This document shows, in pieces, positions 11,319-30,967 of a DNA stretch of 64,000 bases. The position numbers and the translations under genes are program-made. The stretch spans positions 76,181-140,180 of the IMG/VR virus record IMGVR_UViG_3300021133_000001, one strand, 5' to 3'. Every line of letters begins with the position of its first letter. Position 1 is the stretch's first letter. Origin of the DNA: a virus (lineage: Duplodnaviria > Caudoviricetes). The notes beneath the pieces were generated by a model. The model searched no databases, was not told where the DNA came from, and was given only the letters and a program-made list of their open reading frames with translations.

Positions 11319-14300
11319 TTAACTTGCTGATAAGGATTGTTTTAGTGTATTTACTTCAGCTTTAAGCTCTTTCACGGCTTCAATTAATAATGCTGTTAAA
11401 CGAGTATAATCAATACCTACGCAAACTTCTCCTGCACTTGTAGCACTTGTTGATACTACTTGTGGTAGTACTAATTTTACATCTTCTGCAATAAGACCTA
11501 TATTATTAGTATCAGATACATCATATGAACTATCATACATTACACCTGATAGCTGTTCAGTAACTGTTAAAGCATTGCCTATTGTGGTTGTTAAAGGTCT
11601 AATATTGGTTTTGTATCTCTTAGATGAAGTAGTAGTATATGATACAGCAGTAACATCTCCGCTTGAAGCTAAAGTAATGTGTACACCCGCTCCTGACCCT
11701 GTACCAAAGTAAGCAGTGTTTGTGAATAGAGATATGTTGTTTTGAGTTAAACCACCAGCATTAGTAATACCAGCTGCACCTATATAAGCACCGTAACCGC
11801 TAACATTACCACTACCATCTATACCATAACCGGTAGAAGCAATACCTAAACCACCCGGGCTAGTATTAACACCAGCAAAGTTTACATATGAATTTGTGTT
11901 TAAGGTTTGGTTTGCAGTAATTCCTTGAGCACCGGTAGCGCCTTGTGCACCAGTAGAACCCTTACTACCTTGAGCACCAGAAGCTCCTTGAGCTCCAGTT
12001 GCACCTTGAGCTCCGGTAGCGCCTTGTGGTCCGGCACCCTGAGCACCCTGAGCACCTTGAGCACCCTGAGCACCTTGTGCGCCTGTAGCTCCTGTAGAGC
12101 CTTTTAATCCAGAATAGCCTGAATAACCTGAAGCACCTTGTGTGCCTGTAGCGCCTTGTACTCCGTTGACACCAGAATAGCCAGAATAACCAGAAGCACC
12201 TTGTGCTCCTGTAGCTCCTTGAGGCCCGGTACCTTGAGCTCCGGTCGCGCCTTGTGCACCCTGTGCACCTTGTAGACCTGTAAAACCTTGAGGTCCTACT
12301 GGACCGGAGTAACCAGAATAACCACTTGTACCTGTAGTACCTTGTGCACCTATAGCGCCTTGTGCTCCGTTAATACCTGAAAAACCCGATATACCACTAA
12401 AACCGCTTATACCAGTAAAGCCTGAAATACCAGTAAAACCAGAATAACCTGAAATACCGCTAAAGCCGCTAGTACCGCTGAAACCAGAATAACCAGAAAT
12501 ACCACTGAAACCAGAAAAACTTGAATAACCACTATATCCTGATATACCAGATGTTCCAGATATACCGCTAAAACCACTTATACCGGTATAACCTGAATAA
12601 CCAGAATTACCTTGTGCGCCTGTAGCTCCTTGTACTCCGTTAATACCTGAATAACCAGAAACACCTGAAGCTCCTTGCGCGCCTTGCGGTCCAGTACCTT
12701 GAGCGCCAGTAGCGCCTTGTGCACCTACAGGCCCACTGTAACCACTATAACCAGAAGTACTATTACCACTAAAACCAGAATAACCAGAACTGCCTTGAGC
12801 GCCTTGTGGGCTACCTGCAGCACCTTGTGGTCCTTGATTACCTACAAAACCTTGAGGTCCTTGAGGGCCGGAAAAACCAGAATAACCAGAAATACCTGAA
12901 GTTCCTTGTGCGCCAGTAGCGCCTTGAGCACCTTGTACGCCCATAATACCTACACTACCTTGAGTACCCTGTACACCTTGAGCGCCTACTGCACCGGAAA
13001 AACCAGAATAACCAGAAGTACCAGCATTACCTTGCGCACCTACAGAACCGACCGAACCTTGTGCACCTGTTGCTCCTTGAGTTCCCTGTGGACCAGTAGC
13101 TCCTGTTGAACCTTGTCCGCCAGTAGCACCTTGAGCTCCTTGAGCACCTTGTGCGCCAATAAAACCTTGTACACCAGACAATCCTGAGTAACCCGAGTAA
13201 CCAGATGTACCGGAAGCACCTTGAGCACCCTGTGAACCTTGATTACCTTGAGCTCCTGTAGAGCCGTTTATACCTGAATAACCAGAAGGACCGACAACAC
13301 CTTGTGCACCTTGAGCTCCTGTAGAGCCTTTAGCACCAGAGTAGCCAGAAACCCCTGAACCACTAAAACCAGAAATACCGGTATAACCAGAAATACCTGA
13401 AAAACCACTATAGCCTGAAATACCACTAAGACCTTGTGCGCCGATTTGGCCACTAATACCGCTAAACCCGGAAATACCGGAAGTACCACTATAGCCAGAT
13501 ATACCACTAAACCCACTTATACCGCTAAAGCCTGATTGACCGCTAGCTCCAACAGCACCACTAAAACCCGATGTACCGCTAAAGCCTGATTGACCGGAAT
13601 AACCTGAAAAACCAGATAAACCTAAACCACTAAAGCCTGATACACCGCTAAAACCCGATGTACCGCTAAAGCCTGAAAAACTTGAATAACCTGAATAGCC
13701 AGAACCACCTATACCACTAAAGCCTGAAAAGCCAGAAGCACCGGAAACACCTTGACCGATAGGTGTACGTATTACTGTATATACTGAGCTACCATTATAT
13801 TGATAGGAAGCTGAAACAGGCGTGGAACTTGATGTATATGCTGCAATCTGTAACAAGATACGATCAGTAGCAGATAAAATAGTTACATTATTTGATACAG
13901 CCCCTACTTTTTGAAATGTTGATACTGTATCTGTTACTACACCAGAATCTGCACTTAAGATAAATGCACTTGTGGCACTAGTTGCCATTGAATATGTATA
14001 GACACTGAATACAAAATTAACTGGGCCACCTAGAGCGTAACGGTAAAATTCAATATCCCATAATCCAGCTGGTATTTCTACTACACCAGGCTCTCCAGGA
14101 GGTGTTAAATACCAACCAAATGCACTAATACCGTTTGTATTAGTAATTACAACTTGGTCATCATTTACAGTTGTACCGCCGCCACCTGGCTGTAAAGCCA
14201 TTACTTCAAACACTGCAGGGTTTTGGTCACTCGTTACTTCTTCTAAAAAGTATGTTCTACCATATAAAGAACCACCTGCAGGACCAGAAACACCAGACCA

Positions 14301-14939
14301 ACCACTAATACCTGAAAAACCAGAAGCACCTGAAAAACCAGAAGTACCATTTATACCAGAAAAACCAGAAGTACCGGTGTAACCAGACACCCCACTAAAA
14401 CCAGACCAACCACTTGTACCACTATAACCTGATTGCCCGGTGTAACCGCTTATACCAGAAAAGCCTGATATACCAGAAAAGCCTGATTGACCGCTATAAC
14501 CTGTAAAACCACTTGCACCACTAAAGCCAGAAGTACCGCTAAAACCGGAAACACCTGTATAACCACTTATACCACTGTAACCGCTAAAACCAGAGCTACC
14601 TTGAGCTCCTTGTGTGCCTTGAGCACCTTGTGGACCGGTAGCACCCTGCGGACCAGTACCTTGAGCACCAGTTGCACCTTGAGCTCCCTGTGCACCATTA
14701 ATACCATTTGTGCCATTAGTACCGTTTTGACCGGAGTAACCTGATAACCCAATACCTTGTGCACCTTGTGAGCCAGTTAAACCACTGTAACCTGATTGAC
14801 CACTATAACCTGAAGTACCGCCAGGAGCGCCTTGCACGCCTGGAAAACCAGAAGCACCAGAAGCACCAGAATAACCGGAAAAACCTGAAGCTGCTGCAAC
14901 AGGTACCATCTCAAGATTTGTTATTGTTGTTAGTGCCAT
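11319..14939 (-). CDS. Collagen-like (Gly-X-Y) fibre protein with internal globular domain and C-terminal S74 chaperone
   Basis: Alternating GAQ/GAT/GPQ and GFS/GIS/GYS tracts; C-terminus [12 protein letters not shown]...IGLIAEDV...[17 protein letters not shown]. Confidence 0.9.
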
Positions 14940-16247: not shown

Positions 16248-17168
16248 TTATGGTAATTTTGCACTAAGCTGATCAACCTTGGTTGAAAGAGTCTTAACTG
16301 CTTCAATTAAGAGAGCTGTTAAACGACCGTAATCAATACCAACACAAGAACCGTCATCATTAGTTAAAACTACTGCAGGTACTAATGGGAGTACGTCTTC
16401 AGCAATAAGACCAATTTCGTTAGTTGCTGTTAAGTCGATAAGACTATCATAAGCAACTGCACTTAATGCTTTGGTTGTTGCAAGAGGATCGCTAACAACA
16501 GCTGTAATTGGTCTAATGTTTGTTTTACCTGTACGAGAAGATGTTGAAGTAAACGAAAGAGCTGTAATACCAAGCGAGGTAGAAATTGCACTACCGTTAT
16601 CAGTAATAGAACTGTTTGTTAATGTAGTTGCACCAGAAAATTTAGCAACTAAATTTGATGTACCACCAGGGCTTACACCAGTAGCACCTTGCGCGCCTTG
16701 AGCACCAGTTGCACCCTGCGCACCTGTTGAACCAGTAGCACCTTGAGCGCCTGTTGCACCTTGAGCGCCAGTTGAACCAGTAGCACCTTGAGCACCGTTA
16801 GAACCATTTGTACCTGAGGCTCCTTGTGCGCCTTGAGCACCGGTTGCACCTGTAGAACCTTTTAAGCCAGAATAACCAGAAGCGCCTTGTGCGCCGGTAG
16901 AACCTGTAGCACCTTGTGAACCAGTAGCTCCTTGATTGCCTTGAAAACCTTGTGCACCTTGAGCGCCGTTAGCTCCAGAAAAACCAGAAATACCTTGTGC
17001 GCCTTGCGCGCCTGTAGCGCCTGTAGCGCCTTGAGCACCAGTAGAACCCTTACTACCTTGAGCACCGTTTGTGCCGTTTAAGCCTGTAGCGCCTTGAGCA
17101 CCTTGTGCTCCTTGTGCGCCTGCGCCTGAATATCCTGAGTATGCGTTTGCTGGATTAAAGTATGCCAT
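16248..17168 (-). CDS. Short collagen-like fibre with C-terminal S74 chaperone
   Basis: About 50 GAQ/GAT/GST triplets; [12 protein letters not shown]...IGLIAEDV...[15 protein letters not shown]. Confidence 0.9.
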
Positions 17169-17226: not shown

Positions 17227-17880
17227 CTATATAGTTTGCCTTAAACGCTGCATTGGATATACAGGTACATCTAGTCTGCTTATAAAGAATACTAAAGTTA
17301 ATCTTTCAGTTGTATCTTCCCCTACATATTCATTAGCTGTATGATATAAATGGGAGTCAAATGAAAGCAGTCTATTAAATTTATTTTTAATAATAATAGA
17401 ATCAGTAAATTGATTGTTATTTTGCTGTCTAAGAGTATTGATATCCCCTTTATAATTCTTAGGGTCTGCAATAAATTTACGCTTTTCTTCTCCGTTAATT
17501 AATTGTGTACCAGGTACTTTAGGTTCACATATAGAAGTACCTGAATTTTCATCTCCATCCGGGTTAAGATACACAATACCTGTTATAATATCATTATCTT
17601 TATGTACCCAACCAGATTTAAAATCCTTGTTTACTTTTTGAAAATATGCTTTAGCAAAGTAATTTTTTATATCCGCAATAGGGTAATATATAGAAAGAAA
17701 CTTAAAAATAGTATAATAATGTAAATTTGCGTTAATATTTATTAATAAATCCGATCTGGTTCCAGGCCACATTTTGTTGGGGTCTGGCGAAAAGTTTTGT
17801 ACTAATGCAAACTCTCTTACTTTGTAAGGATCTTCAAAGAATCCGTCTATAACTGAAGTAGGAATAATATAATTTTGCAT
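17227..17880 (-). CDS. 2OG-Fe(II) oxygenase (DUF6445-like)
   Basis: VIDGFFEDPYKVREFAL, WPGTRS, GWVHKD (HxD), GIVYLNP, SGT, NKFNRLLSFD..LYH (distal His). Confidence 0.85.
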   Translation of the reverse strand: MQNYIIPTSVIDGFFEDPYKVREFALVQNFSPDPNKMWPGTRSDLLININANLHYYTIFKFLSIYYPIADIKNYFAKAYFQKVNKDFKSGWVHKDNDIITGIVYLNPDGDENSGTSICEPKVPGTQLINGEEKRKFIADPKNYKGDINTLRQQNNNQFTDSIIIKNKFNRLLSFDSHLYHTANEYVGEDTTERLTLVFFISRLDVPVYPMQRLRQTI

Positions 17881-17897: not shown

Positions 17898-19274
17898 TTA
17901 TTTTGAATAGTCAATACCGTATAGGTCTAATTCTTGTCGAGCTAATTCTGGTGTAATTTTATCTATACCTGCAAGTATCCAATTATAGAGAGATGCCCCT
18001 ACACTGCCATAATAGTAATCATATTGCAATCCACCAGGTACTGTATGTTTACATCTTTCTAATAGATCAGCCACAAAAGGTGTTATAGTTTTGCCTGATT
18101 TTATATAACGCCAAAACTCGGAATCATCTCTACCGCCTTGATAGTGTAGTACTAAGAAATCTAGTACATCATCATATAATTTACACATTTTTTTATTATA
18201 ATATTTTCTGTTAACGTCAATTAATGTACTCGTCGCGTCCGGTCTTAAATATTCCATAAACGTTAATAATTGTACTATTGTGGTGTGAATAGAAGTAGCC
18301 TCTAAAGGCTCAGCAAATGCTGCAGCTAGACCTAACACTAAGCAGTTACTTTCCCACAAAGTTTCGCACCTACCGCTATCAAAGCTTATATGTCTTATAG
18401 GCTCTATTTTTCTACCCAATGCAGTTTCGACCTCTTGCTGTGCTTGATCAGGTGTAATGCAGTTTGATTGATAAACATACCCGCAGCCTATTCTTTCTGT
18501 GGTAGGTATTTGCCACATCCACCCCGAACTTAATGCATGTGCTATGGTTACCGGTCTTGGGCGGTTATCTTCATCTATAGGTAATAAAAATGGCATTGCT
18601 CGGTCAACAGGCAAATGAGAAGCATATGTTTTCCATTTAACTTCTAGAGCATTCATTAGTACTCTCTTAAAACCGGTACAGTCCACGAAAAGATCTCCTT
18701 CAAGTTCTTGGCCGTTGTTTAAACGTATTTTTGTTATTACGTTCTTTTCGTTAATCCCCACATCATTAACAACAGCATCAATTACTGTAATATCGTCTTT
18801 AAGTACTTTTTTAAAATGTGCACCTATTTTAAATGCATTAAAATGATACGCAGAAATAAGAGATATATTACCTTCAGAGTAAATTTTACCAAATTCTGAG
18901 GCTTTATGCATACCTTCTTTGCCTTCTTTAATAAAAGATTTTAAGAAATGTATATCAGGGCTTGATGTGCCGGTTCTCGTGCCGTCAAGCGGTGCAAAGT
19001 AACTATCTCCAGCTGGTGTCCAGTTTTTATGTAATATACCTAGTTTAACTGTCCCGTCAACGTCGTTTAAAAAGTTAGATATAGTAGTACCAGTTTTAAA
19101 CCAGTGATTTGATAGTACGTTTACCAGCATTCCAGTTGAGCCTTCTCCAGCACCAATAATACTAATTTGACTAGACTCAACAACAGTGACTTTGTGCTTA
19201 CCTAATTGTGCTTTAGTAAAAAATAAAGCAGCAAGCCACCCAGCTGTACCACCACCCACTATTACTATGTTCAT
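17898..19274 (-). CDS. Flavin-dependent (tryptophan-halogenase family) halogenase
   Basis: IVIVGGGTAGWLAA (GxGxxG), IIGAGEGS, VKLGI (candidate catalytic Lys), DLFVDCTGF, GWMWQIP (WxWxIP), FAEPLEATSI. Confidence 0.92.
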   Translation of the reverse strand: MNIVIVGGGTAGWLAALFFTKAQLGKHKVTVVESSQISIIGAGEGSTGMLVNVLSNHWFKTGTTISNFLNDVDGTVKLGILHKNWTPAGDSYFAPLDGTRTGTSSPDIHFLKSFIKEGKEGMHKASEFGKIYSEGNISLISAYHFNAFKIGAHFKKVLKDDITVIDAVVNDVGINEKNVITKIRLNNGQELEGDLFVDCTGFKRVLMNALEVKWKTYASHLPVDRAMPFLLPIDEDNRPRPVTIAHALSSGWMWQIPTTERIGCGYVYQSNCITPDQAQQEVETALGRKIEPIRHISFDSGRCETLWESNCLVLGLAAAFAEPLEATSIHTTIVQLLTFMEYLRPDATSTLIDVNRKYYNKKMCKLYDDVLDFLVLHYQGGRDDSEFWRYIKSGKTITPFVADLLERCKHTVPGGLQYDYYYGSVGASLYNWILAGIDKITPELARQELDLYGIDYSK

Positions 19275-19582: not shown

Positions 19583-20584
19583 TTACCTTACATAAAGTTC
19601 TACTCTTGCTGATCTGTTTATACCGGTTTGATTTTGACAGCAAGCAACATAGTCTCCAGCTGAATAATTACCGAAATTACCTGCCATTCCTAAACCACCA
19701 GAAACGTCGTCAGAACCAGCAGCTCCACTATTAAACAATGTAGAAGGGTCACTATATTGCCCTTCACCGTTTTCATTCCAACCAAACCCCCAACGCACCG
19801 CTGCCCCACCACCGTAACCCCAGTCCCCTGCATTAATAAAGTTATATCCGTAAAAGTTGATATCGTTTTGAGATGAAAAGATACCAGTTTGAAAACCATT
19901 AAAACCGGATGCCCCACCTAGAAAGTCACCACCTGCACTACCAGAACCGTCATCTTGATACGTACCAGCATTGCTAAAAAAGTTTAAAAGAGTTGTTGTG
20001 CTACTAACATTAGGGCTGTCTCCTTGACCTGCAAAATTATTTTGCAGCCAAGACCAGCAACCATACGGATTACTACCTAAACCACCACCATTAGTACCAA
20101 TATCAGGCCACAACGCCATCATATCTGTAACGTTAGCATAATTAAAGACCTGAAACTTTGCATCTCCGTCATTACGGTTAGTTGCGCTCGTGTTTAAAGT
20201 ATTATTGCCTGTCCAGTAACCAGAATTATAATTAAAAGTAGTACCACGAGTTGCTTTTAACGCCATCATCCATCCACCACCGTTTGCGCCAGAGTTTAAT
20301 AAACAGTACACCGGGGTTGAACCTACACTAGGTAAATTAATATAATACACTCCGTCAGTACGATACCCGGCATTGTATAATGCTTTAGCTGAAGAAGCAG
20401 GGTTTCCAGCTGTACCTAATGTATTAGTTTTACCGTAAAAGTTATTTAATGCTATTTGTCCAGAAGCTATACCCGCTAAATTACGAGCAGTAGAATCATT
20501 AAGTGTAAGAGCTGTAGTAGCTGTACTACCAAGCTCCACATCTATATTACTCATTGATATAGTACCTGATGATTGTAACGTCAT
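19583..20584 (-). CDS. Putative fibre-tip adhesin with fibrinogen-like (YCxxxxxGGGW) domain
   Basis: N-terminal MTLQSSGTISMSNIDVELG...GQIALNNFYGK attachment-type motif; DGVYYI...VYCLLNSGANGGGWMM; Gly/Trp-rich C-terminus. Confidence 0.75.
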   Translation of the reverse strand: MTLQSSGTISMSNIDVELGSTATTALTLNDSTARNLAGIASGQIALNNFYGKTNTLGTAGNPASSAKALYNAGYRTDGVYYINLPSVGSTPVYCLLNSGANGGGWMMALKATRGTTFNYNSGYWTGNNTLNTSATNRNDGDAKFQVFNYANVTDMMALWPDIGTNGGGLGSNPYGCWSWLQNNFAGQGDSPNVSSTTTLLNFFSNAGTYQDDGSGSAGGDFLGGASGFNGFQTGIFSSQNDINFYGYNFINAGDWGYGGGAAVRWGFGWNENGEGQYSDPSTLFNSGAAGSDDVSGGLGMAGNFGNYSAGDYVACCQNQTGINRSARVELYVR

Positions 20585-20595
20585 TTATTATATAT

Positions 20596-21663
20596 TTAGT
20601 GTACGAAAGTAAATATAGCTGCAGTTAATAAAAGTAAGAACGCCCAAGTGCCTAATGCTTTGTAGTATGTAGATAAAGGCGTACCAAAGTAACGTTTACC
20701 AATCATAACACATTCATGCATAGGTGTTAATAAATACCCACAATAATCTAATGCAAAGAACCATAACAGATACTGTTTACCGAATACTGTTGTAGCTAAT
20801 ACAGTTAATGCGGCAAATTTACCGTCACTACCCATACTAAAGCTAGCAGCAAATAGTAGCATACTAATAATATACATACCACTAAATGTATGCGGGTCTA
20901 AACCCCAGTTTCTCACTGCGTGTTCAATCCAGGCTCTATGTTCTTGCATATAACCCGATGTAAAAAAGATAACACCAATTAATGCAATAGTAGTCCAGTT
21001 GACATAACTACTAATCTTTTTCCAGCTATAGGTCTTAGTAATATACAGATAATAAGCTAATAGAGTACCGAAGATAGGAAACACTAACTCTGGGCCTTCT
21101 CCTCCAAGTAGCATATACGTAAGAACAGCAGCAATAAACGGTATTACGTTTTTGATAAAGCTACTAGCACCGAGATTTTCTTGAGGTGTAATTTCTATCT
21201 CATCTTCTTTAATAACAAAGAATAAATAGTAAAAAATAAATGCAGCACTAACAGCTATTAACGGCCATAACATTTTTAACCATACTGCATATGTAATACC
21301 GAACGCTGCCATTGGTAATATTACTGGTTTCTCAATAGGAGACCACATATAATAGTGATGAGTAGTAAGAAAGTCAATAGGTCCAAGCTTTTGACGTGCT
21401 TTTACATCTTTTTCCTTTGAGGCTGTTGCAGTATCTAGTATACCTGCACTAACTGTACTTCTACCTTCTAGAGGTAATATACCGCTAATAAGACTAATAA
21501 CAGCAATAACTAACTTGTTACTTTTAAGTTTAAATTTTAACCATCCATACGTACATCCGAATAGGTTATGCTCTTTGGCAATACCCGCTACTACCATAAT
21601 AGTAAAGAGTACAAAGAGATAGATTTCGTCTCCGAGATAAAAACGGTCTAAAAAGTCACTCAT
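20596..21663 (-). CDS. Multi-pass membrane transporter (ion-transporter superfamily-like: CitM/ArsB/DUF401 type)
   Basis: About 9-11 hydrophobic segments; ISGILPLEGR, THHYYMWSPIEKPVILP and GYLLTPMHEC; the SPxH/TPxHxC-type re-entrant motifs recall IT-superfamily permeases. Confidence 0.7.
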   Translation of the reverse strand: MSDFLDRFYLGDEIYLFVLFTIMVVAGIAKEHNLFGCTYGWLKFKLKSNKLVIAVISLISGILPLEGRSTVSAGILDTATASKEKDVKARQKLGPIDFLTTHHYYMWSPIEKPVILPMAAFGITYAVWLKMLWPLIAVSAAFIFYYLFFVIKEDEIEITPQENLGASSFIKNVIPFIAAVLTYMLLGGEGPELVFPIFGTLLAYYLYITKTYSWKKISSYVNWTTIALIGVIFFTSGYMQEHRAWIEHAVRNWGLDPHTFSGMYIISMLLFAASFSMGSDGKFAALTVLATTVFGKQYLLWFFALDYCGYLLTPMHECVMIGKRYFGTPLSTYYKALGTWAFLLLLTAAIFTFVH

Positions 21664-21677
21664 AGCTATATTTTATA

Positions 21678-23312
21678 TTATTTCTTTACAATAGCCAGGT
21701 AAAAACCATTCCACCACATATCAGGATCTTCTAAATCATTTAATAATATCTTATCGTATATTACTTCTAAACCAGCATCAGCAATACCGCGTTTAGCACC
21801 GCTAACTACTCCATCAAAATTTGCATCGTCAAATATAAGAACAGCTTCATCTACTAGCTTATCTGCAAAGTACATTATAGCTTGATAGTTAGCTTCTTCG
21901 CTATGATCTGCATCATAAAAGAAAAAGTCTATATTACCAATATCAGACTTGTCGACTTGTAAAAAATGGCTATTGAATACCTTTAAAGTGTTACTACCTT
22001 TATACTTTTTAGCATTCTCAATAAATTTTTCTTTTGAGGATTCAAGATCAACTTTACCGTTAGCAGACTTGGTTTGTTCTTGCCAATGATCGACTGCATA
22101 AGCTCTAAGATTGTTATCTTTAATAGTAGCACAAAACGTACCACCGTTTAACACACCCACTTCAAGGTAACCTGTCGATATTTTACCAATACCGTTTAAT
22201 AGCTGTTTCATTTTGTCTGAAGTAATACCTTCTACAGTATCTCCTATTGGTTGATTAACAGTGTCTATTAGTAATTGAGCAACCTTTTCAACCTTCTTGT
22301 TGTTTTTATTACCTTTAGCTCTCCATACTTTTGTACAGTAATCACAATCCCAACAATTAAATTTACATGTCTTAATCTTTTGACGCCAAGCATTTATAGG
22401 TTTTTCTATTAAGTTAGTATCTTCAATATAAGGCTTAAACCCGTCAAATAATAACTCTTCTTTATTAGCGAATCTACGAATAATGTCCATAGTTTCGTTT
22501 AAACGGTTACTATTCTCTCTACCGTGCATTTTAATCGTATCAATACCTAACTCTAAAAACTCTAACCAATCTTCTCTCCAAGGTGGAAAGTTAGCATTAG
22601 TTAACTGTACAGCTGAATCTTGAGTCTGCCATTTAGGACAACTAACTCTACTAATAGGGTCTGTAAAGTACTGATTACCTGTTGTTCTAGTATTATTAAA
22701 GTGGTAATGCTCATCCATAACAGGACACCCACCTACACAACCTTCATTAGCTAATAAAGATAGCTTGATACCGTATTTGTCTTTAACTCTTTTTATCTCT
22801 CTAAGTCTATCATGATCTCTCATGAGTACTCGATCAAGATTAACATAGTTAAAACCAGCCTGTGCTAAAGCTGCTACTTCTCTTGGTTCTTTTACACCTC
22901 TAAGAATAGTGTTCTTGACAAATAACTCTGGAAAGTTATGTTTAACTTGCTTAGTTAACATCCAGTGAGTGTGTGGTAACGTGCAAGATCTTATACCAGC
23001 GTCATACAACGGTTTAAAGTTCTTTATCCAGGTTTCTAAGTTCTTTTGATCAGCTCGTACTGATATATTGTTAAACGTAGCTGATACAGTTATACCAGTT
23101 TCTTTCTGTACGTATAAAGCTGTTTCAATAGCAAACTGATGTGCTTCTTTTTGTACAAACACATCACCCATAGCATCCTGTAAAAAAGGATCTATTCGAC
23201 AAGTAAAATAAATGTCGTAAATGTAATCCTTATACTCCTTACAAAACGCTAAAAATGAATAGAACTGTTGTTCTGTAAGTTTAGGATTAAGCGGTATGCT
23301 AAATATCTTCAC
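21678..23312 (-). CDS. Fusion of a U32-family Fe-S domain (N-terminal ~340 aa) and a class I SAM methyltransferase (Methyltransf_24-like)
   Basis: VNLDR, LLANEGCVGGCP...RVSC, IDTIKMHGRE (cf. U32 LKIEGR), KTCKFNCWDCDYC; C-terminal YLEVGVLNGGTF, AVDHW, IDFFFYDADH, VLIFDD. Confidence 0.8.
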   Translation of the reverse strand: MKIFSIPLNPKLTEQQFYSFLAFCKEYKDYIYDIYFTCRIDPFLQDAMGDVFVQKEAHQFAIETALYVQKETGITVSATFNNISVRADQKNLETWIKNFKPLYDAGIRSCTLPHTHWMLTKQVKHNFPELFVKNTILRGVKEPREVAALAQAGFNYVNLDRVLMRDHDRLREIKRVKDKYGIKLSLLANEGCVGGCPVMDEHYHFNNTRTTGNQYFTDPISRVSCPKWQTQDSAVQLTNANFPPWREDWLEFLELGIDTIKMHGRENSNRLNETMDIIRRFANKEELLFDGFKPYIEDTNLIEKPINAWRQKIKTCKFNCWDCDYCTKVWRAKGNKNNKKVEKVAQLLIDTVNQPIGDTVEGITSDKMKQLLNGIGKISTGYLEVGVLNGGTFCATIKDNNLRAYAVDHWQEQTKSANGKVDLESSKEKFIENAKKYKGSNTLKVFNSHFLQVDKSDIGNIDFFFYDADHSEEANYQAIMYFADKLVDEAVLIFDDANFDGVVSGAKRGIADAGLEVIYDKILLNDLEDPDMWWNGFYLAIVKK

Positions 23313-24009
23313 TCTTGGTCTTAGTCTCGAGTTTCAACTGGTCCTTAGCAACATCATCAATATAAGCTAAATCTGTTCCTGCTGAACTCATTAACTGTTT
23401 CATTGTTGCTTGACCGATTGCATCAAGTCCTTTACCTAAAACCCCATTATATTTAATAGCAAGACCAAGTGTTTCTTTAACATCTGGCATCGGCATCATT
23501 AATATTGAGTCTAAGTTACCTTGACTAATACGTCCAATAGTGTTTAAGTCCATTGCAGCCTGTTTAGCCATTCTCGTTATCCAGTACTCCCGTTCTAATT
23601 GTTCATTATGAGTACCGAATTGTTGTAACGCTTCTAAGTTAGGTACAACTGCTTTTACCATGTTAACAAAGTTATTAAGTTCATTTTGAACCATAACTTC
23701 TTTTTTGTCATACATATGAATGTCCCAATCTGCTTGATCAATATCAACTTGAATAAGTTGTTTCTTTAACTCGTCTGGTTCATTTGCAATATCGCGTTCT
23801 AATATTTGCTTTTCTATCATGCGCTTTCTGCGCTGACGTTCAATTTGCTTTTGTGAACCAATACGAGTATCAATTTCTAGTAAAGCTTGACGCACTCTAC
23901 GGTAATCTGTTACTTGTGAATTTACAACAAAGTAACGAGATTGAAAATCAGACATGCCGAGAGAGTTTTCGTTCTCATCGACGAATTTAATAATATCATT
24001 ATATTCCAT
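23299..24009 (-). CDS. Coiled-coil hypothetical protein
   Basis: 236 aa, charged and helical; overlaps the U32 gene start by 14 nt. Confidence 0.75.
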   Translation of the reverse strand: MEYNDIIKFVDENENSLGMSDFQSRYFVVNSQVTDYRRVRQALLEIDTRIGSQKQIERQRRKRMIEKQILERDIANEPDELKKQLIQVDIDQADWDIHMYDKKEVMVQNELNNFVNMVKAVVPNLEALQQFGTHNEQLEREYWITRMAKQAAMDLNTIGRISQGNLDSILMMPMPDVKETLGLAIKYNGVLGKGLDAIGQATMKQLMSSAGTDLAYIDDVAKDQLKLETKTKSEDI

Positions 24010-24012
24010 ATA

Positions 24013-24678
24013 TTAGAACTGGTAACCGAATTTTACTGCACTTAATCTTGCGTTTCTTGTATCGTTCCAATGACCTCTACGCACTGCGAGGTCTTTTGGC
24101 ATTTCTATACCGAAAGTCATTTCACGTTCATAATGCAAGTCGTCTATTGTCGACAAGCTATCTATTAAAGTATGTATTCTGGCATGCGTGTCTGCATCGT
24201 AATCAGGTCTCGGATAAAGAGTATCTGTATTCGGTAGACCTAACTTTCTATCTTCCATCTCTTGTTCAAGGTGTAACTTAAGAGATTTTTTCATTAATGA
24301 AACAAGATGCGGTGTTAAATCTACAGCATCTGCAGAAACAGCTGCAAAGTTTGCGTTGTTTAAGTATACTTTTGTTTTTCTTTTACCTTTAGCTAATTCA
24401 TCTGGATCAGAAGGTAAACCTTCAACATCGGAATAAGCTTTACGGTAAGGACGAGTTTCTCCATAATGCTTGCATGCAGAAAGTTCATATTGAGTAATCT
24501 CAACTAAAGGTATATATTTTTTTACTCCTTGAAATGGAAATGCTTCCATAGAACTTACTGCAGCGTATGCGGTGTCAGTTGTAAATTCAACGACATTGAA
24601 GTTATCAAATGATGTAACTACTCTCATACCGTCTATGGTAGGTATATATCGAAAGAATTTTGCAATGTAGTATGACAT
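24013..24678 (-). CDS. Hypothetical protein
   Basis: 221 aa; 3 nt from the next gene in a compact operon. Confidence 0.7.
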   Translation of the reverse strand: MSYYIAKFFRYIPTIDGMRVVTSFDNFNVVEFTTDTAYAAVSSMEAFPFQGVKKYIPLVEITQYELSACKHYGETRPYRKAYSDVEGLPSDPDELAKGKRKTKVYLNNANFAAVSADAVDLTPHLVSLMKKSLKLHLEQEMEDRKLGLPNTDTLYPRPDYDADTHARIHTLIDSLSTIDDLHYEREMTFGIEMPKDLAVRRGHWNDTRNARLSAVKFGYQF

Positions 24679-24691
24679 GGTTTAAAGTTAT

Positions 24692-25756
24692 TTATATATT
24701 AGTACCCATTGTTCCACCTAATAGTACTGCACTACCTGTAGCACAACCGCCAGAAGAAGTACCTCCATGACCTTTCGGTTGCATAGTTGAACCACCTGTC
24801 ACTAAAGTATCACTTGTATAGTATTGTTTAAAAGAGTTATTATTTTGCACCCCATTGTAGTTACCAAGTTCATAGCCCCAATCCTGACCTATTTCGTAAT
24901 TTTCTTCTCCACCGTTGTCTCCACGGTTAATAGTAGAAATATAAGACAAAGTAACGTCGTTAAATTTATAATAATTTACACTAGCTGTATTGCCGCCACC
25001 TGCATTATAACCAACACCCCACTTACTAGACAAACCGTGATTAATACCATCTAGACCGTTTAGATACGTCCATGTACCAGTAGTCCAAGTATCAGTTGAC
25101 CATGCTAAAGATGCTGAAGAGCTACTATTAGCAATAGTACCGTAATATTGACCGAAAAAGCCTGCGCCGCTTCCTGCTGAACCACCAGACGTTACACCGT
25201 TGTAACCAACTGTACCTGCTGCAAACATTGTATCAGTTATTGTACAAAATTTATCTGTAGAAGCAGATGAACCGCAGCAAATATATACAGCTGTATTACC
25301 AGCGTTCATTAAGGTTTTGCTCTGCATACGATTATTTTTCATGTTCCAGTTATCAGTATGTGTTCTTAACGCCTCAGTTTGCATGTTCATTGATGAACAA
25401 TACGAAGATACTCCTTGAAATCCTGCATCAGGCCAAACATATGAATAATAATCACTAAAACCTACATCTATATACGCAGCACCGTTATCCATCATATCTC
25501 CTAAGTTAGTTGTAGTATCTGTGTTATGCATTGTACGGTTAGTGTTTCTCCAAGGAGAACTATTTTGATAACCACAGTGCATATACCCACGAGTGTATAT
25601 TGTGCGATAAAGAAATAAGTTATTATTAGGGTTTGGATTAATATCAACGCCTGTTGCCATCCAGCTATATCCGTCAAACACATATGTATTGTAACCGTTC
25701 GGGTTTAAGTACCGAGTGCCTGTTGATGGGGATGTTGGAAAGCTTAATACTGACAT
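24692..25756 (-). CDS. Kelch-like beta-propeller protein, paralogue B
   Basis: N-terminal LSFPxSPSTGxRY...Y.(F/W)DGYxW; about six 40-45 aa units beginning GY/VY-x-x-x-G and ending in xDT-type turns; colinear with the neighbouring gene. Confidence 0.7.
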   Translation of the reverse strand: MSVLSFPTSPSTGTRYLNPNGYNTYVFDGYSWMATGVDINPNPNNNLFLYRTIYTRGYMHCGYQNSSPWRNTNRTMHNTDTTTNLGDMMDNGAAYIDVGFSDYYSYVWPDAGFQGVSSYCSSMNMQTEALRTHTDNWNMKNNRMQSKTLMNAGNTAVYICCGSSASTDKFCTITDTMFAAGTVGYNGVTSGGSAGSGAGFFGQYYGTIANSSSSASLAWSTDTWTTGTWTYLNGLDGINHGLSSKWGVGYNAGGGNTASVNYYKFNDVTLSYISTINRGDNGGEENYEIGQDWGYELGNYNGVQNNNSFKQYYTSDTLVTGGSTMQPKGHGGTSSGGCATGSAVLLGGTMGTNI

Positions 25757-25757
25757 A

Positions 25758-26825
25758 TTATATTGTAGTACCTAGTACTCCTCCTAAGATTAAACAGCTA
25801 CCTGTACCACAAGCACCAGAAGACGCGCCTCCGTGACCTTTCGGTTGCATAGTTGAACCACCAGCTACACATGAGTCTGTTGTATATGAAACTTTTGTAG
25901 AGTTATTTGTTTGTCCACTTCCGTTGTAAGAACCTATAGTATAACCCCAATCCTGCCCTACTTGACAGTTTTCTTCACCACAAGTCTCTGGACGACTTAT
26001 ACTTGATACGTATGTTCTAGTTACATCGTTAAATTTATATAAAGTTGATGAACCAGCATATGAACCAGGCGCATTATACCCGTATCCCCATTTACTCGAC
26101 AAACCTTTTGGTTGTCCGTCTGTACTACTATAACCTGAAAAAATATTTTGACTGGTCCATGTTTCTGTACTCCAGGTAAAATAACCACCACCACTATTAG
26201 CGTTTATAATACCGTAATATTGACCCCAAAAACCACTAAGACCACCAGCTGTACCACCAGAAGATGAGCTAGCAGCTACTAAGTTAGCTGCTATCATAGT
26301 ATCTGAAGCTGTAATAAATTTATCTGTTGAAGAATTATTACCACCCGTAATGTATATTGCAGTGAGATCAGCATTCATTAACGCTTTACAGTTTTGACGA
26401 CTTACCGTTGTATTCCAGATACTATTATACGATCTCAAGCTTTCTGTTACCATACTCATTGACGAAGTGTAAGCAGAGGTTCCTTGCACACTACCTGAGT
26501 CGTTAAATACATACGTGTTGTAGTCGCTAAAACCACCGTCAATATACGATGCACCGCGGTCCATCATATCCCCTAAGTTAGTTGTAGTGTCTGTTACATG
26601 TAAAGTTCTATTAGTATTTCTCCAAGGAGAACTATTTTGATAACCGCAGTGCATATACCCTCTAGTGTACATTGTACGATAAAGGAAAGGGTTAGCGTTA
26701 ACCGGGTTAGTACCTAATGATTGACCAGTTGCACACCAGGTATAACCGTCCCAAAAGTAAAAATAACCGGTATAGGCATTATACCGGTTACCAGTTGAAG
26801 GAGAACTTGGAAAGCTAAGAGCCAT
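25758..26825 (-). CDS. Kelch-like beta-propeller protein, paralogue A
   Basis: Shares FLYRTxYTRGYMHCGYQNSSPWRNTNRT, TDTTTNLGDMMD, GLSSKWG, YKFNDVT, GEEN, GQDWGY and GGSTMQPKGHGGxSSGxCxTG with 24692..25756. Confidence 0.7.
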   Translation of the reverse strand: MALSFPSSPSTGNRYNAYTGYFYFWDGYTWCATGQSLGTNPVNANPFLYRTMYTRGYMHCGYQNSSPWRNTNRTLHVTDTTTNLGDMMDRGASYIDGGFSDYNTYVFNDSGSVQGTSAYTSSMSMVTESLRSYNSIWNTTVSRQNCKALMNADLTAIYITGGNNSSTDKFITASDTMIAANLVAASSSSGGTAGGLSGFWGQYYGIINANSGGGYFTWSTETWTSQNIFSGYSSTDGQPKGLSSKWGYGYNAPGSYAGSSTLYKFNDVTRTYVSSISRPETCGEENCQVGQDWGYTIGSYNGSGQTNNSTKVSYTTDSCVAGGSTMQPKGHGGASSGACGTGSCLILGGVLGTTI

Positions 26826-26828
26826 GTC

Positions 26829-28007
26829 TTACTTTTTAACTAAACTTTTTAGTTCTTCTATTTGAGCTTGCTGTTCTTTTATTGCTTCAATAAGAAGAGG
26901 TATAATTTTTTCGTACTGCACTGTTTTAAAGTTATTACCGGACTTAGAACTAATTGTACCGTCGTTGTTTACTAATACATCAAACGGTGCAGGTTTAATT
27001 ACTTCTGGTAATACTTCTTCTACTTCTTGAGCAATAACACCTACTTGTAATTCATCGGAAGTATAACCGTACTGTTTAGCGGTTTCGTTATTAGTGTAAT
27101 ATACACCGTTTAAAGATAATACTTTAGGTAGAGCACCGCTAATATTACTCTTAATATCTTTAAGTCTCTTATCTGAATAGTAAGCTGCAACATTGCCTGT
27201 TGCATATACACTACCGTAAACTGTTAAACTACCAGAAACACCTACGTTACCGTAAATGTTACCACCAGATGTTCTAAAAATTAGAGAAGGATCAACTACA
27301 GGTGTAGCTGCAACCCATTGACTGTTGTACCAAACGTTTAATACGCCTGTATCTGAATTCCACCACAGGTAGCCGTTTGCAGCACCGCTAGGGGTACCGT
27401 TATTAACACCACTTTGTACTATAGCATTATTACTAATGCCTTGAGAGCCTTGAGCGCCCTGCGCTCCTGAACCAGTTGCACCTTGAGAACCAGTGGAACC
27501 AGTAGCCCCTTGAGCTCCTGTTGCTCCTTGTGCGCCAGTAGAACCAGTGGAACCAGTAGCCCCTTGAGCTCCTGTTGCTCCTTGTGCGCCAGTAGAACCA
27601 GTTGAACCAGTAGCCCCTTGAGCTCCTGTTGCTCCTTGAGCACCATTAGATCCGTTACTACCTGTTGCGCCTTGAGCACCGGTGGAACCTTTAGCTCCTT
27701 GTGCGCCTGTAGCCCCTTGGGCACCTGTTGCACCTGTAGCACCTTGAGCACCGTTTTGCCCGGTTGTACCGTTAACACCTTGTGCTCCTTGAGCGCCTGT
27801 AGCACCTTGAGCGCCGTTTAAACCATTTACGCCTGATATACCTTGAGCACCTTGAGCACCTTGTAATCCGGTATAACCTTGAGGTCCAATTGCGCCTTGT
27901 GCACCTTGAGAACCAGTTTGTCCTGTTTGACCGGTTGCACCTTGCGGGCCTTGAGTGCCTGAAAATCCTGAAGCTCCTTGTATACTATATGTAAACGGTG
28001 TAGCCAT
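26829..28007 (-). CDS. Collagen-like fibre with C-terminal S74 chaperone
   Basis: About 60 GAQ/GAT/GST triplets; [13 protein letters not shown]...W module; YSDKRLK...[15 protein letters not shown]...[16 protein letters not shown]. Confidence 0.9.
27487..27638. repeat. 54-bp near-exact tandem repeat (~2.8 copies) within the collagen tract
   Basis: gaaccagtggaaccagtagccccttgagctcctgttgctccttgtgcgccagta at 27487 and 27541; partial copy at 27595 with one mismatch. Confidence 0.9.
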
Positions 28008-28016
28008 ATATTATAT

Positions 28017-30941
28017 TTAACTTAATCTTGCACTTAACTGTGCTATTAAAGTATTTTGATTATTTATTTGTACTTGTTGTTCTTTAATAGCTTCTACTAG
28101 TAAAGATGTTAAACGACTGTAATCAATACCGATATAGTTTCCGGCGCTATCTGGGTCATCATAAACTACTTCTGGAACTATATTTACTGTATCTTCTGCA
28201 ATAAGCCCTATATCGTTTGGATCGGTTTTAAGAGTGTTATCATACCATACACCAGATAATTGTAGTACTCTATTTAAAGAATTGGTTAATGGTCGTATAT
28301 TAGTCTTAAAACGTCTAGATGAAGTAGAAGTAAATGAATAAGCTGTAATACCAAGAGATGTTGATATAGCACTACCATTATCAGTAATAGAACTATTAGT
28401 TACTGTGGTTGAACTGTTAAACTTAGCAACAACATTTGAAGTACCGCCTGAACCAGCAGCTGCACCTTGTGCGCCTGTAGCTCCCTGTGCACCTGTTGAT
28501 CCTGTAGCACCTTGTGCACCGGTAGAGCCTGTAGCACCTTGTGCGCCTGTAGCACCTTGTGCGCCGTTAGAACCGTTTGTACCAGCTGCACCTTGTGCAC
28601 CATTCGTACCAGCTGCACCTTGAGCGCCTGTAGAACCAGTAGAGCCTTTTAAGCCAGAATAACCTGAAGCGCCTTGAGCGCCAGTAGAGCCTGTAGCGCC
28701 TTGAGCGCCTGTTGCACCTTGAGCGCCAGTAGAACCTGTAGAACCTGTTGCACCTTGAGCGCCAGTAGAACCTGTAGAACCTGTTGCACCTTGAGCTCCT
28801 GTAGAGCCTTTAGCACCAGAGTAACCAGAGTAACCAGAGTTTGATCCTGCTGCTTGAATTTGTGAACCAGGATACTCAACAATTAAACCTGCTGTAGTAC
28901 CTATACCGATCATAACCGGTTTAATGATTGAACCTACAGCTGATGGGGGTGTTGTGGTCATTAGACCTGCTGTTGCGTCTGAAAGATAATATTGTGCAGC
29001 ATCTACTATACCTGTAAAGCCTGAAGTATAACCGTTAGCTACATACTGGAAAGAAGTACCAGTAGCGCTTACTACTACACCGATAATATCTGACGTGCTT
29101 GGGCTGTTGGCTTGTGCTAATGCATAACCACCAGATGTCTTGTATATAACATTACCCGGACTAAAAGAGTTGCTATATGTTACATTTACATTAGTAGCAT
29201 TTAAACCGCTTATACCAGAAAAACCAGATACACCTGAACCACTAAAACCACTAAAGCCTGAGTAACCAGAAACACCGCTAAAGCCTGAAATACCGCTAAA
29301 ACCTGATTGACCAGAAATACCACTGAAACCAGATATACCACTAAATCCTGAAATACCTGTATAGCCAGAATATCCTGTAATACCGCTAAAGCCTGAGATA
29401 CCAGAGAAGCCTGATATACCACTAAAACCGGACCAGCCTGATATACCGCTCGCTCCTGATATACCGCTAAAACCACTAATACCTGTAAAGCCTGAATAAC
29501 CAGAGATACCGGAGAAACCTGTTATACCACTAAAACCGGACCAACCACTGATACCGCTAAAGCCTGAAATACCGCTGAAACCACTTATACCTGAAAAACC
29601 AGAAAAGCCTGTGAAGCCACTATAACCAGATATACCGCTAAAACCTGAAATACCTACACCAGAATAACCTGATGTACCAGACACACCCTGACCGATTGGG
29701 GTACGTACTACAGTAAACTGCGAACTACCGTTATATTGGTAAGCAGCAGTAAGTGTTGTTGTACTTGTTGTATAAGCTGCAACTTGTAATAAGATACGAT
29801 CTGTTGCAGAAAGAATTGTAATATTGCTTGTAGCGTACTGTACTTTTTGATAGGTTGAAGTAGTATCTGTAACGGCACCGGAATCGGCGCTTAAAATAAA
29901 TGCACTCGTGGCACTAGTTGCCATTGAGTAACTATAAATGCTAAATACAAAATTAGCTGTACCACCTAAAGCGTAACGATAAAATTCTATATCCCATAAA
30001 CCTGCAGGTATTTCTGTTATACCAGGTTCACCGATTGGTGTTAAGTACCAACCGAAAGCACTTGGACTGCCTGGACCTGCTGTAGTAGAATTAAGAGCTA
30101 GTTGGTCGTCATTAACTGTCGTACCACCACCGCCTGGCTGTAAAGCCATAACTTCAAACACAGCAGGGTTTTGATCACTAGTTACTTCCTGTAAGAAATA
30201 CGTTCTACCATATACAGATGCGCCTGTGCCACCTGACCAACCCGAAATACCACTAAAGCCGCTGATTCCGCTAAAACCACTTATACCACTAAAGCCAGAC
30301 CAGCCTGATACACCACTTGCACCAGATATACCGCTAAAACCGGATATACCACTAAAACCGCTGAAGCCAGAATAACCGCTGACACCACTGAAACCACTTA
30401 TACCTGTATAACCGGAATAGCCAGAAATACCTGTAAAACCTGAATAACCTGATATACCGCTAAAACCAGACCAGCCTGATATACCACTAAAACCTGATAC
30501 ACCACTCGCTCCTGATATACCGCTGAAACCACTTATACCTGAAAAACCAGATATACCACTTGCGCCAGATATACCACTGAAACCAGAAAAACCTGAAATA
30601 CCTGTATAACCGCTATAACCGGAAATACCGCTAAAACCACTTATACCTGAAAAACCAGACCAACCGGATATACCGCTAAAGCCTGAAATACCTGTATAAC
30701 CACTATAACCGGATATACCACTAAAGCCAGAAAAGCTCGAGTAACCGCTATAACCGGAAATACCAGAGAATCCACTTATACCACTAAAGCCAGAAAAGCC
30801 TGAAATACCAGTAAATCCAGAATAACCGGAAGCACCCTGTGCACCAGTAGAGCCTTTTGCACCTTGCGCACCTGTTACGCCAGTAGTACCTGAGTAACCA
30901 GACTGTCCCTTAATCGCTGTGTATACAAATGTATTGCTCAT
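28017..30941 (-). CDS. Gly-X-Ser/collagen-like fibre with two globular domains and C-terminal S74 chaperone
   Basis: Two long [12 protein letters not shown] tracts, shared GRTY...TPIGQG domain, FSPGNVIY...IIGVV domain, GAQ/GAT tract, TSSRRFKTNIRP...IDYSRLTSLLVEAIKE. Confidence 0.9.
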   Translation of the reverse strand: MSNTFVYTAIKGQSGYSGTTGVTGAQGAKGSTGAQGASGYSGFTGISGFSGFSGISGFSGISGYSGYSSFSGFSGISGYSGYTGISGFSGISGWSGFSGISGFSGISGYSGYTGISGFSGFSGISGASGISGFSGISGFSGISGASGVSGFSGISGWSGFSGISGYSGFTGISGYSGYTGISGFSGVSGYSGFSGFSGISGFSGISGASGVSGWSGFSGISGFSGISGFSGISGWSGGTGASVYGRTYFLQEVTSDQNPAVFEVMALQPGGGGTTVNDDQLALNSTTAGPGSPSAFGWYLTPIGEPGITEIPAGLWDIEFYRYALGGTANFVFSIYSYSMATSATSAFILSADSGAVTDTTSTYQKVQYATSNITILSATDRILLQVAAYTTSTTTLTAAYQYNGSSQFTVVRTPIGQGVSGTSGYSGVGISGFSGISGYSGFTGFSGFSGISGFSGISGFSGISGWSGFSGITGFSGISGYSGFTGISGFSGISGASGISGWSGFSGISGFSGISGFSGITGYSGYTGISGFSGISGFSGISGQSGFSGISGFSGVSGYSGFSGFSGSGVSGFSGISGLNATNVNVTYSNSFSPGNVIYKTSGGYALAQANSPSTSDIIGVVVSATGTSFQYVANGYTSGFTGIVDAAQYYLSDATAGLMTTTPPSAVGSIIKPVMIGIGTTAGLIVEYPGSQIQAAGSNSGYSGYSGAKGSTGAQGATGSTGSTGAQGATGSTGSTGAQGATGAQGATGSTGAQGASGYSGLKGSTGSTGAQGAAGTNGAQGAAGTNGSNGAQGATGAQGATGSTGAQGATGSTGAQGATGAQGAAAGSGGTSNVVAKFNSSTTVTNSSITDNGSAISTSLGITAYSFTSTSSRRFKTNIRPLTNSLNRVLQLSGVWYDNTLKTDPNDIGLIAEDTVNIVPEVVYDDPDSAGNYIGIDYSRLTSLLVEAIKEQQVQINNQNTLIAQLSARLS

Positions 30942-30959: not shown

Positions 30960-30967
30960 TATTTATA
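30960..30967 (-). promoter_or_regulatory. TATAAATA (exact T4 late promoter consensus) upstream of fibre gene 28017..30941
   Basis: Plus strand tatttata, intergenic. Confidence 0.6.

Follow-up and report, generated by a model that had tools for sequence, protein, structure and literature searches.

A compact gene cassette lies between positions 20596 and 28007 of the 64,000-nucleotide window analysed here, which is the final 64 kb of the 140-kb IMG/VR record IMGVR_UViG_3300021133_000001. Within this cassette, five protein families form a conserved unit: Kelch-type propellers, present in one to three copies per related locus, two soluble proteins of 221 and 236 amino acids (aa), referred to as u221 and u236, a divergent U32-family enzyme with or without a fused methyltransferase (U32-MT), and a DUF401 membrane protein. 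The cassette is tentatively read as one copy of a portable accessory module of fibre tips, in which the U32 enzyme might hydroxylate, and then O-methylate, a target linked to the tip. The source is an uncultured, distant T4-like marine phage, probably with a jumbo genome, since its large terminase is about 34% identical to those of T4-like cyanomyoviruses and the CheckV completeness estimate for the 140-kb record is 44%. No close relative of the region was recovered by megablast among 50,697 phage records.

The conservation of the neighbourhood was assessed in 80 viral loci from IMG/VR, the best of at least 544 confirmed stretches; being the nearest relatives of the query (at least 53% identical), these loci are not a random sample and their counts are to be read as such. 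An iterated profile was built for each family, and presence was counted only in loci with enough flanking sequence. Kelch and u236 genes were found in all 64 such loci, u221 in 63 of 64, and DUF401 in 56 of 69, directly adjacent in 42. Removal of redundancy at 90% identity left 47 viral lineages, in which the ratios were unchanged. A preliminary description of the window had expected a conserved neighbourhood rather than scattered homologues, and both the synteny counts and the co-occurrence in phage records bear this out. It had also proposed that a block of seven genes moved as a unit, which holds for the five families and fails for the seven genes, because the gene upstream of the propeller is collagen-like in only 9 of 60 loci and otherwise encodes a protein of 150-2200 aa.

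The same families recur in cultured phages. Among the 50,697 records, which also served for co-occurrence, the U32 gene was detected in 126 (77 Synechococcus, 38 'Cyanophage', 8 Prochlorococcus and 3 Ralstonia phages), and u236 in 126 records distributed identically over organisms and hosts, the two record lists not having been compared one by one. The Kelch profile matched 123 records, all of cyanophages, the three missing ones being the Ralstonia phages. DUF401 is carried by 12 records, each of which also has the U32 gene, and it is the fifth, dispensable member of the module. Cultured carriers include P-HM2, Syn33, S-RIM2, S-CAM4 and Ralstonia phages RP12 and RP31; in cyanophages the orthologues are T4-GC351-354, annotated as 'hypothetical' or 'sericin 1 precursor-like'. 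Ralstonia phage RP31 encodes, in order, a collagen-like protein of 170 aa, proteins of 292 and 158 aa, u236 (profile score 1e-37), a U32 protein without methyltransferase (4e-107) and DUF401 (2e-86), and the BFVD model of the 292-aa protein in the sister phage RP12 has a Kelch fold. In a time course of P-HM2 infecting Prochlorococcus MED4, the Kelch gene PHM2_098 was classed as 'Late (E)' and PHM2_099-101 as 'Late (D)' (PMC5082946, supplementary file 3).

Bacterial versions place the module in a setting other than a phage genome. A contig from a Pseudomonadales metagenome-assembled genome (MAG), which lay outside the training of every profile, carries all five families in order and without the methyltransferase (Kelch 4e-44, u236 1e-49, u221 6e-19, U32 4e-123, DUF401 5e-108). 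Its Kelch domain forms the C-terminal part of a 1589-aa DUF6519/LVIVD protein, and fibre-like proteins with DUF6519, LVIVD and Collar domains stand on both sides, including a second DUF6519/Collar fibre. Beyond the fibres are a tail sheath, a gp19-like tube protein, a Pvc16_N protein and an AAA ATPase, a gene content that identifies the locus as a contractile injection system. Such a system has no genome to modify, and its context therefore connects the accessory genes with the fibre. The link to fibre tips suggested in the preliminary description thus gains independent support from this injection locus, as it does from the late expression of the P-HM2 orthologues. Furthermore, a 6.44-Mb Leptospirales contig encodes a 1523-aa DUF6519/DUF2341/Laminin_G_3 protein with a Kelch C-terminus, and the genes behind it (in order, u236, u221, a stand-alone U32-like gene and DUF401) overlap at their stops and starts; unlike the Pseudomonadales locus, these sequences had entered the iterated profiles. 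A search for related loci with one bacterial protein returned only its own genome.

The central enzyme of the cassette is a 544-aa fusion (21678-23312, minus strand; phrog_1458 at 1e-165; T4-GC354) composed of a divergent U32-family TIM barrel (residues 1 to about 335) and a class I O-methyltransferase (about 350 to 544). An AlphaFold2 model, with a mean predicted local distance difference test (pLDDT) of 76, shows an N-terminal TIM barrel and a C-terminal Rossmann-type methyltransferase, with the cysteine loop 190-243 poorly modelled. The barrel gave no match to the Pfam U32 family PF01136 (gathering score 22.4 bits) in the whole protein or the N-terminal domain even at E 10, and a six-frame search of the whole virus record for PF01136 was equally negative. 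Its membership of the U32 family is supported by three independent lines of evidence, namely fold, spirochaete intermediates and profile-profile comparison. In structure comparisons against 48,161 solved chains, the whole-model search was dominated by the methyltransferase, and the top match of the N-terminal domain was the U32 protein Mk0906 (5d88_A; Z 15.2, root-mean-square deviation (rmsd) 3.6 A, 202 aligned residues, model residues 1-271), with a small margin over the second match, the methylenetetrahydrofolate reductase MTHFR (Z 14.0). A profile of 40 diverse homologues (A2) matched spirochaete proteins at 1e-13 and 8e-5, which themselves score 33.9 and 26.4 bits on PF01136, above the Pfam cut-off. 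In hhalign, the same profile aligned with one built from E. coli UbiU, E. coli UbiV and three others (A7) with a probability of 97.5% and E 7.4e-12 over 276 columns, pairing C192 with a U32 signature cysteine and the motif KMHGRE with KIEGR. Searches of the Protein Data Bank by phmmer or profile, with the 544-aa protein and the alignments A2, A3, A4 and A5, gave chance-level matches only, and no Pfam family was found in remote U32-like homologues of 430-580 aa.

Seven cysteines are invariant across the 40 diverse homologues (C192, C196 and C225; C316, C320, C323 and C326), with the spacing CX3CX28C followed by CX3CX2CX2C, in which only the first aligns with a U32 signature cysteine. The canonical U32 pattern is CX6CX15CX3/4C, whose four cysteines bind a [4Fe-4S] cluster (PMC6747719). 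The C-terminal domain is a cation-dependent class I O-methyltransferase. It scores 38.3 bits on Methyltransf_24 (cut-off 26.3; 2.7e-9), and its fold matches at Z 15-17, which are Mg-dependent O-methyltransferases, comprise the Mycobacterium tuberculosis O-methyltransferase 5x7f, SpnH, MeT1 and TrmR; the TrmR chains themselves gave Z 15.5 (5zw3) and Z 14.9 (8k1f), and Foldseek matched 3tfw and 3duw at 1.5e-7. Residues E384, G386, G390, D467, D495, D496 and N498 are invariant in 20 homologues, within the motifs LEVGxxxG, YDADH and FDDAN, which correspond to S-adenosylmethionine (SAM) motif I and the D...D-x-N residues. From what is known of COMT and CCoAOMT, and not from superposition, D467, D495, D496 and N498 are presumed to form the metal site. 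The fusion is present in all 47 non-redundant viral lineages, with the SAM and metal motifs retained. Some homologues carry the Joint Genome Institute (JGI) label 'O-methyltransferase YrrM'.

U32-like relatives of this enzyme were also observed in other surroundings. A 506-aa paralogue occurs in other T4-like marine phages (L087-L090; gene L087:8001-9521), where uvsW lies on one side of it, Sm-like, nucleoside-deoxyribosyltransferase and gp46/47-like genes lie on the other, and the vicinity contains no Kelch gene; it may represent a nucleic-acid-directed branch of the U32-like clade. One stand-alone homologue (L086:8001-9035) comes from a 109-kb contig on which Volactin and DHFR are encoded as well, and the cluster around it comprises four radical SAM genes together with a glycosyltransferase, epimerases, PIG-L, UDP-glucose dehydrogenase and a split transketolase. 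In a variant cassette (L084 and L085; gene L085:2014-3300), a 428-aa U32-like protein is preceded by two proteins, one of 342 aa that weakly matches Gly_rich_2 and one of 170 aa, and is followed by a 598-aa protein of the Trp-halogenase family.

The candidate tip proteins are two tandem paralogues sharing 60% identity, propeller A (355 aa; 25758-26825, minus strand; phrog_1417 at 1.5e-65; T4-GC351, 'sericin 1 precursor-like') and propeller B (354 aa; 24692-25756, minus strand; phrog_1417 at 1.6e-64). An AlphaFold2 model based on a 40-sequence alignment (pLDDT 84.6, predicted template modelling score 0.81) has a six-bladed Kelch fold, closest to KLHL17 (6hrl; Z 31.1, rmsd 2.3 A over 273 residues), Keap1 (Z 30.1) and KLHL12 (Z 30.0), with non-Kelch propellers at Z 15-18; Foldseek gave a match at 4e-15. 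Neither propeller matches a Pfam family at E 0.01, and paralogue A matches no Kelch family even at E 10; as modelled, they belong to the Kelch group at the level of fold only. Both are rich in Tyr and Trp, with several invariant Tyr, and consist of 26% Ser and Thr. A short N-terminal hairpin segment, PxxPxxG...W-x-G-x-x-W, was found in the two propellers only.

The two soluble proteins differ in their conservation. The gene for u236 (23299-24009, minus strand; phrog_1409 at 8.9e-53; T4-GC353) ends 14 nt inside the start of the U32-MT gene, and its product has the invariant residues F27, Q41, E45, W143, R146, Q150, G159, G164 and N165 and matched no family other than phrog_1409. In contrast, u221 (24013-24678, minus strand), the positional equivalent of T4-GC352, has no Pfam or NCBIfam match and evolves fast, with no invariant column in its alignment; it was detected in 79 loci by iterated profile. 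No Pfam family is shared across all 35 u221 members scanned, and a weak HI1402_helical note on the Leptospirales homologue was not reproduced in that scan. No relation of either protein to UbiT, or of u221 to u236, was detected by hhalign, and the ESM Atlas offered no usable match for either. The order of the two genes is swapped in about half of the non-redundant lineages (23 versus 22), and whichever adjoins the U32 gene tends to overlap or abut it.

The last family is represented by a 355-aa protein (20596-21663, minus strand; phrog_14035 at 2.8e-73), polytopic by hydropathy, which scores 32.1 bits on DUF401 (PF04165; cut-off 24) over profile positions 62-386 of 393. Its score of 37.1 on NCBIfam TIGR00529 is far under the equivalog cut-off of 378 and therefore indicates a distant subfamily; the NCBIfam scan of the cassette proteins gave nothing useful beyond this sub-threshold match. 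Invariant motifs in its alignment (A6) are LPI-GR--VSAG-LDT, THHYY-WSP-E, GSS-K and P-H-C, and the protein is probably a secondary transporter. The same subfamily was observed in other MAG contigs (L105, L107 and L110; an unclassified bacterium, a Gammaproteobacteria MAG and others), where it adjoins radical SAM/SPASM maturase-like genes and, judging from its N-terminal sequence, an MFS-like transporter, and not a U32-like gene. DUF401 proteins may be general partners of Fe-S tailoring enzymes.

The remaining gene of the cassette encodes a 392-aa collagen-like short fibre (26829-28007, minus strand; Pfam Collagen 1.5e-26) with a C-terminal Peptidase_S74 intramolecular-chaperone domain (4.4e-11; residues 278-337, 43.4 bits, cut-off 22). 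It begins with SDKRLK at residue 278, that is, with the S-D-x-R-x-K cleavage motif at the start of the S74 domain. The claim that this is the only canonical SDxR S74 domain in the window is correct in a narrow sense, as three further collagen-like S74 fibres, all on the minus strand, have SS[RK]R/T-x-K variants at the same position: SSRRFK in the 974-aa fibre at 28017-30941, SSKRYK at 11319-14939 and SSRTGK at 16248-17168. In view of the variable upstream gene, the S74 fibre was rejected as a member of the conserved module, and it is a lineage-specific neighbour outside the core. Overall, the assignments of U32, methyltransferase, Kelch, S74/collagen and permease domains made at the outset agree with the Pfam, AlphaFold2, fold-match and hhalign results.

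The open reading frame map confirmed seven minus-strand genes at the coordinates given above, with the successive gaps first described (3, 1, 13, 3, -14 and 14 nt). However, the flanking gaps are as small as the internal ones, 9 nt upstream towards the 974-aa fibre and 11 nt downstream towards a 333-aa gene, and spacing therefore fails to delimit a seven-gene unit. The cassette is enclosed in a late fibre array whose genes all point the same way and which covers more than 23 kb, from about 38150 to about 16248. The close spacing shows tight co-transcription, and the original idea of one operon was discarded insofar as it implied seven separately bounded genes. A T4-late-type TATAAATA lies at 24689-24696 (minus strand), 11 nt before the u221 start, and a second T4-late-promoter-like TATAAATA at 30960-30967 (minus strand), 19 nt before the start of the 974-aa fibre. 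Across the window, the T4 late-promoter TATAAATA is not enriched, with 9 occurrences found versus 13.7 expected.

Three minus-strand neighbours follow the cassette. The 333-aa Gly/Asn-rich protein (19583-20584; phrog_1325) has counterparts close to the cassette in 36 fetched loci, those of P-HM2 and Syn33 among them, and may be another fibre-associated protein. Two genes downstream of the cassette is an intact flavin-dependent gene of the Trp-halogenase family (17898-19274; Pfam 6.6e-86), and a DUF6445/2-oxoglutarate (2OG)-oxygenase-like gene also lies just downstream (17227-17880). A halogenase homologue occurs within the flank of the U32-MT gene in only 8 of 82 related loci, and both genes therefore look like lineage-specific additions.

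In the proposed reading, tailed phages and contractile injection systems would share a module composed of Kelch proteins and four co-inherited accessory genes. The Kelch proteins would sit at or on the tail fibre, as suggested by gene position and by the bacterial Kelch domains that form the C-termini of fibre-like proteins. The characterised U32 enzymes need no O2 to hydroxylate aromatic or heteroaromatic carbons and take the oxygen from prephenate (PMC10990095, PMC6599085, PMC5727448), and by analogy with UbiU/UbiV, TrhP and RlhA the putative Fe-S U32 domain may carry out the same type of reaction. The fusion of a COMT/TrmR-type methyltransferase to this domain suggests hydroxylation followed by O-methylation, in which the fused domain would methylate the new hydroxyl; the conversion of Tyr into DOPA (3,4-dihydroxyphenylalanine) and then into 3-methoxytyrosine would be an example. 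The target, to which only the strict co-inheritance points, could be the Kelch propeller itself or a ligand held by it. A role as chaperone or adaptor might fall to u221, which shares its fast evolution with the propeller, and to u236, which shares its conservation with the enzyme, and DUF401 might transport a small anion, either a co-substrate or a product, that many hosts can supply themselves. Less probable than this module reading, and rather doubtful as a whole, is the full proposition that phages and injection systems covalently tailor Kelch receptor-binding tips by means of an O2-independent U32 hydroxylase, often fused to a methyltransferase, with two partner proteins and a permease.

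Several considerations weigh against this interpretation. The substrate, the modification and the protein contacts are hypothetical. To our knowledge, the substrates of U32 enzymes are nucleosides or RNA bases, or quinones, and never proteins, and we know of no precedent for a permease with a role in virion assembly. The cysteine spacing departs from the canonical U32 pattern, so that the predicted cluster binding and chemistry may differ as well. Related stand-alone U32-like genes stand in a sugar/radical-SAM cluster and in a replication module, and together with the Gly-rich/halogenase context such branches imply that the chemistry may exceed the fibre link. The synteny counts, as mentioned, derive from the nearest relatives of the query. 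Moreover, T4-GC351-354 are absent from S-SM1, S-PM2 and Syn9, which have virion proteomes, and the proteomes of Sullivan et al. 2010 likewise concern phages lacking these genes, so that they carry no information on the module.

Among other explanations, a small-molecule pathway is rather unlikely but has several points in its favour. The U32-MT, joined in some lineages by the halogenase and a 2OG oxygenase, would tailor a small aromatic compound that DUF401 imports or exports; the Kelch protein would bind this compound as a cofactor or adhesive, or its linkage would have another reason. The permease-like, polytopic character of DUF401 and its strict co-occurrence with the U32 gene fit this scheme, as do the halogenase found in some flanks and here, the resemblance of the methyltransferase fold to catechol and sugar O-methyltransferases, and the secondary-metabolite synthesis proposed for dioxygenase/halogenase arrays of cyanophages (Iyer et al. 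2010, PMC2938197). However, the conserved core lacks any scaffold-building enzyme (non-ribosomal peptide synthetase, polyketide synthase, prenyltransferase or ATP-grasp), DUF401 is missing from 114 of the 126 phage records, and such a pathway predicts neither late expression nor strict co-inheritance with Kelch proteins in phages and an injection system. It is more improbable that the U32-like domain is an assembly factor, that is, a chaperone, redox sensor or 'collagenase-like' protease that helps the fibre tip to fold or to become attached, u221 and u236 serving as co-chaperones. Genes directly downstream of fibre genes commonly encode chaperones (T4 gp38/gp57A and Tfa are general examples), u221 evolves as fast as the tip, and the bacterial and Ralstonia versions lack the methyltransferase, so that methylation is dispensable. 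Yet the seven invariant cysteines and the K-x-H-G-R-E barrel motif, aligned to U32 KIEGR, indicate a catalytic metalloenzyme, and the SAM and metal motifs of the fused methyltransferase are intact in 47 of 47 non-redundant viral lineages; furthermore, we know of no established mechanism for a U32 protease activity.

Modification of nucleic acids appears very improbable. The enzyme would then be an analogue of TrhP plus TrmR making 5-hydroxy or 5-methoxy pyrimidines in tRNA, rRNA or phage DNA, its position among fibre genes being incidental. TrhP and RlhA do hydroxylate C5 of U34 and C2501, respectively (PMC6599085, PMC5727448), the methyltransferase resembles TrmR, the YrrM label points in the same direction, and the 506-aa paralogue of other T4-like phages lies between uvsW and genes of nucleotide metabolism. 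Against this stand the late expression of the genes, like that of structural genes, the strict co-inheritance of the enzyme gene with Kelch, u221 and u236, the lack of an RNA-binding domain in the 544-aa protein, and the occurrence of the enzyme gene in the locus of a contractile injection system, where no nucleic acid is packaged. The least probable of these explanations, by which the TIM-barrel/methyltransferase enzyme would modify a nucleotide sugar or a sugar on a glycosylated, Ser/Thr-rich propeller, can draw on the Ser and Thr content of the propellers, on SpnH and MeT1, sugar O-methyltransferases among the top fold matches, and on the stand-alone homologue clustered with a glycosyltransferase, epimerases and PIG-L. 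Nevertheless, glycosyltransferases and nucleotide-sugar enzymes are absent from the conserved core and from the examined flanks, and the barrel has its homologues among U32 proteins and not among sugar isomerases, its AP_endonuc_2 match reaching only E 0.079.

Tailoring of fibre tips would be of consequence, as these receptor-binding tips determine which hosts a phage can infect and which targets an injection system can reach. The enzyme set is apparently dedicated to one kind of tip, and it is widespread, with at least 544 IMG/VR stretches and 126 isolate phage genomes carrying it; abundant phages of Synechococcus and Prochlorococcus are among the carriers. Should the tip be its target, there would be a chemical layer of host recognition which comparison of fibre sequences alone misses. 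If the proposed tailoring is true, it would be the first case of a U32 enzyme acting on a protein and of a virion fibre modified in an Fe-S-dependent manner; the substrates of the U32 hydroxylase family would extend to a new class, and DUF401 would for the first time be placed in a functional context. The existence of cultured carriers makes a direct test feasible.

As the preliminary description had anticipated, the cassette matches no characterised pathway: literature searches found no published description of it, the text matches to DUF401 being DUF4011 and DUF4015. The closest enzymes are the U32 [4Fe-4S] hydroxylases UbiU-UbiV, TrhP/YegQ and RlhA/YdcP, as well as Mk0906 (5d88), with which the cassette protein shares the TIM barrel (Z 15.2) and profile homology. 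It differs from them in lacking a Pfam U32 match, in its cysteine pattern, in the methyltransferase fusion, and in its co-inheritance with a Kelch fibre protein, two family-less proteins and DUF401; unlike UbiU-UbiV, it is accompanied by neither a second U32 subunit nor a UbiT-like partner. In Bacillus subtilis, TrhP1/TrhP2 (YrrN/YrrO) and TrmR (YrrM) convert U34 of tRNA into ho5U and then mo5U, and there one transcription unit likewise pairs a U32-type hydroxylase with a COMT-like O-methyltransferase that depends on Mg. The two domains of the cassette enzyme are instead fused, late and tied to fibre genes, and nothing indicates a tRNA substrate.

A comparable logic of hydroxylation followed by decoration was predicted for collagen-like and tail-collar proteins with co-encoded 2OG dioxygenases and sulfotransferases, alongside the dioxygenase/halogenase arrays of the Syn9 type (Iyer et al. 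2010, PMC2938197). Those systems resemble the present one in standing beside collagen-like or fibre proteins, and the halogenase and DUF6445/2OG-like genes downstream of the cassette add to the likeness. The chemistry differs, with a putative Fe-S U32 enzyme here versus 2OG/Fe enzymes there, and methylation versus sulfation, both schemes being predictions. Finally, fibre chaperones such as T4 gp38/gp57A and Tfa, together with S74 chaperones, share with the cassette the arrangement of small accessory genes directly behind the tip gene, and u221 evolves as fast as its tip. Neither u221 nor u236 resembles a known chaperone family in sequence or profile, however, and whereas known chaperone sets include neither an Fe-S enzyme nor a permease, the cassette is predicted to encode both.

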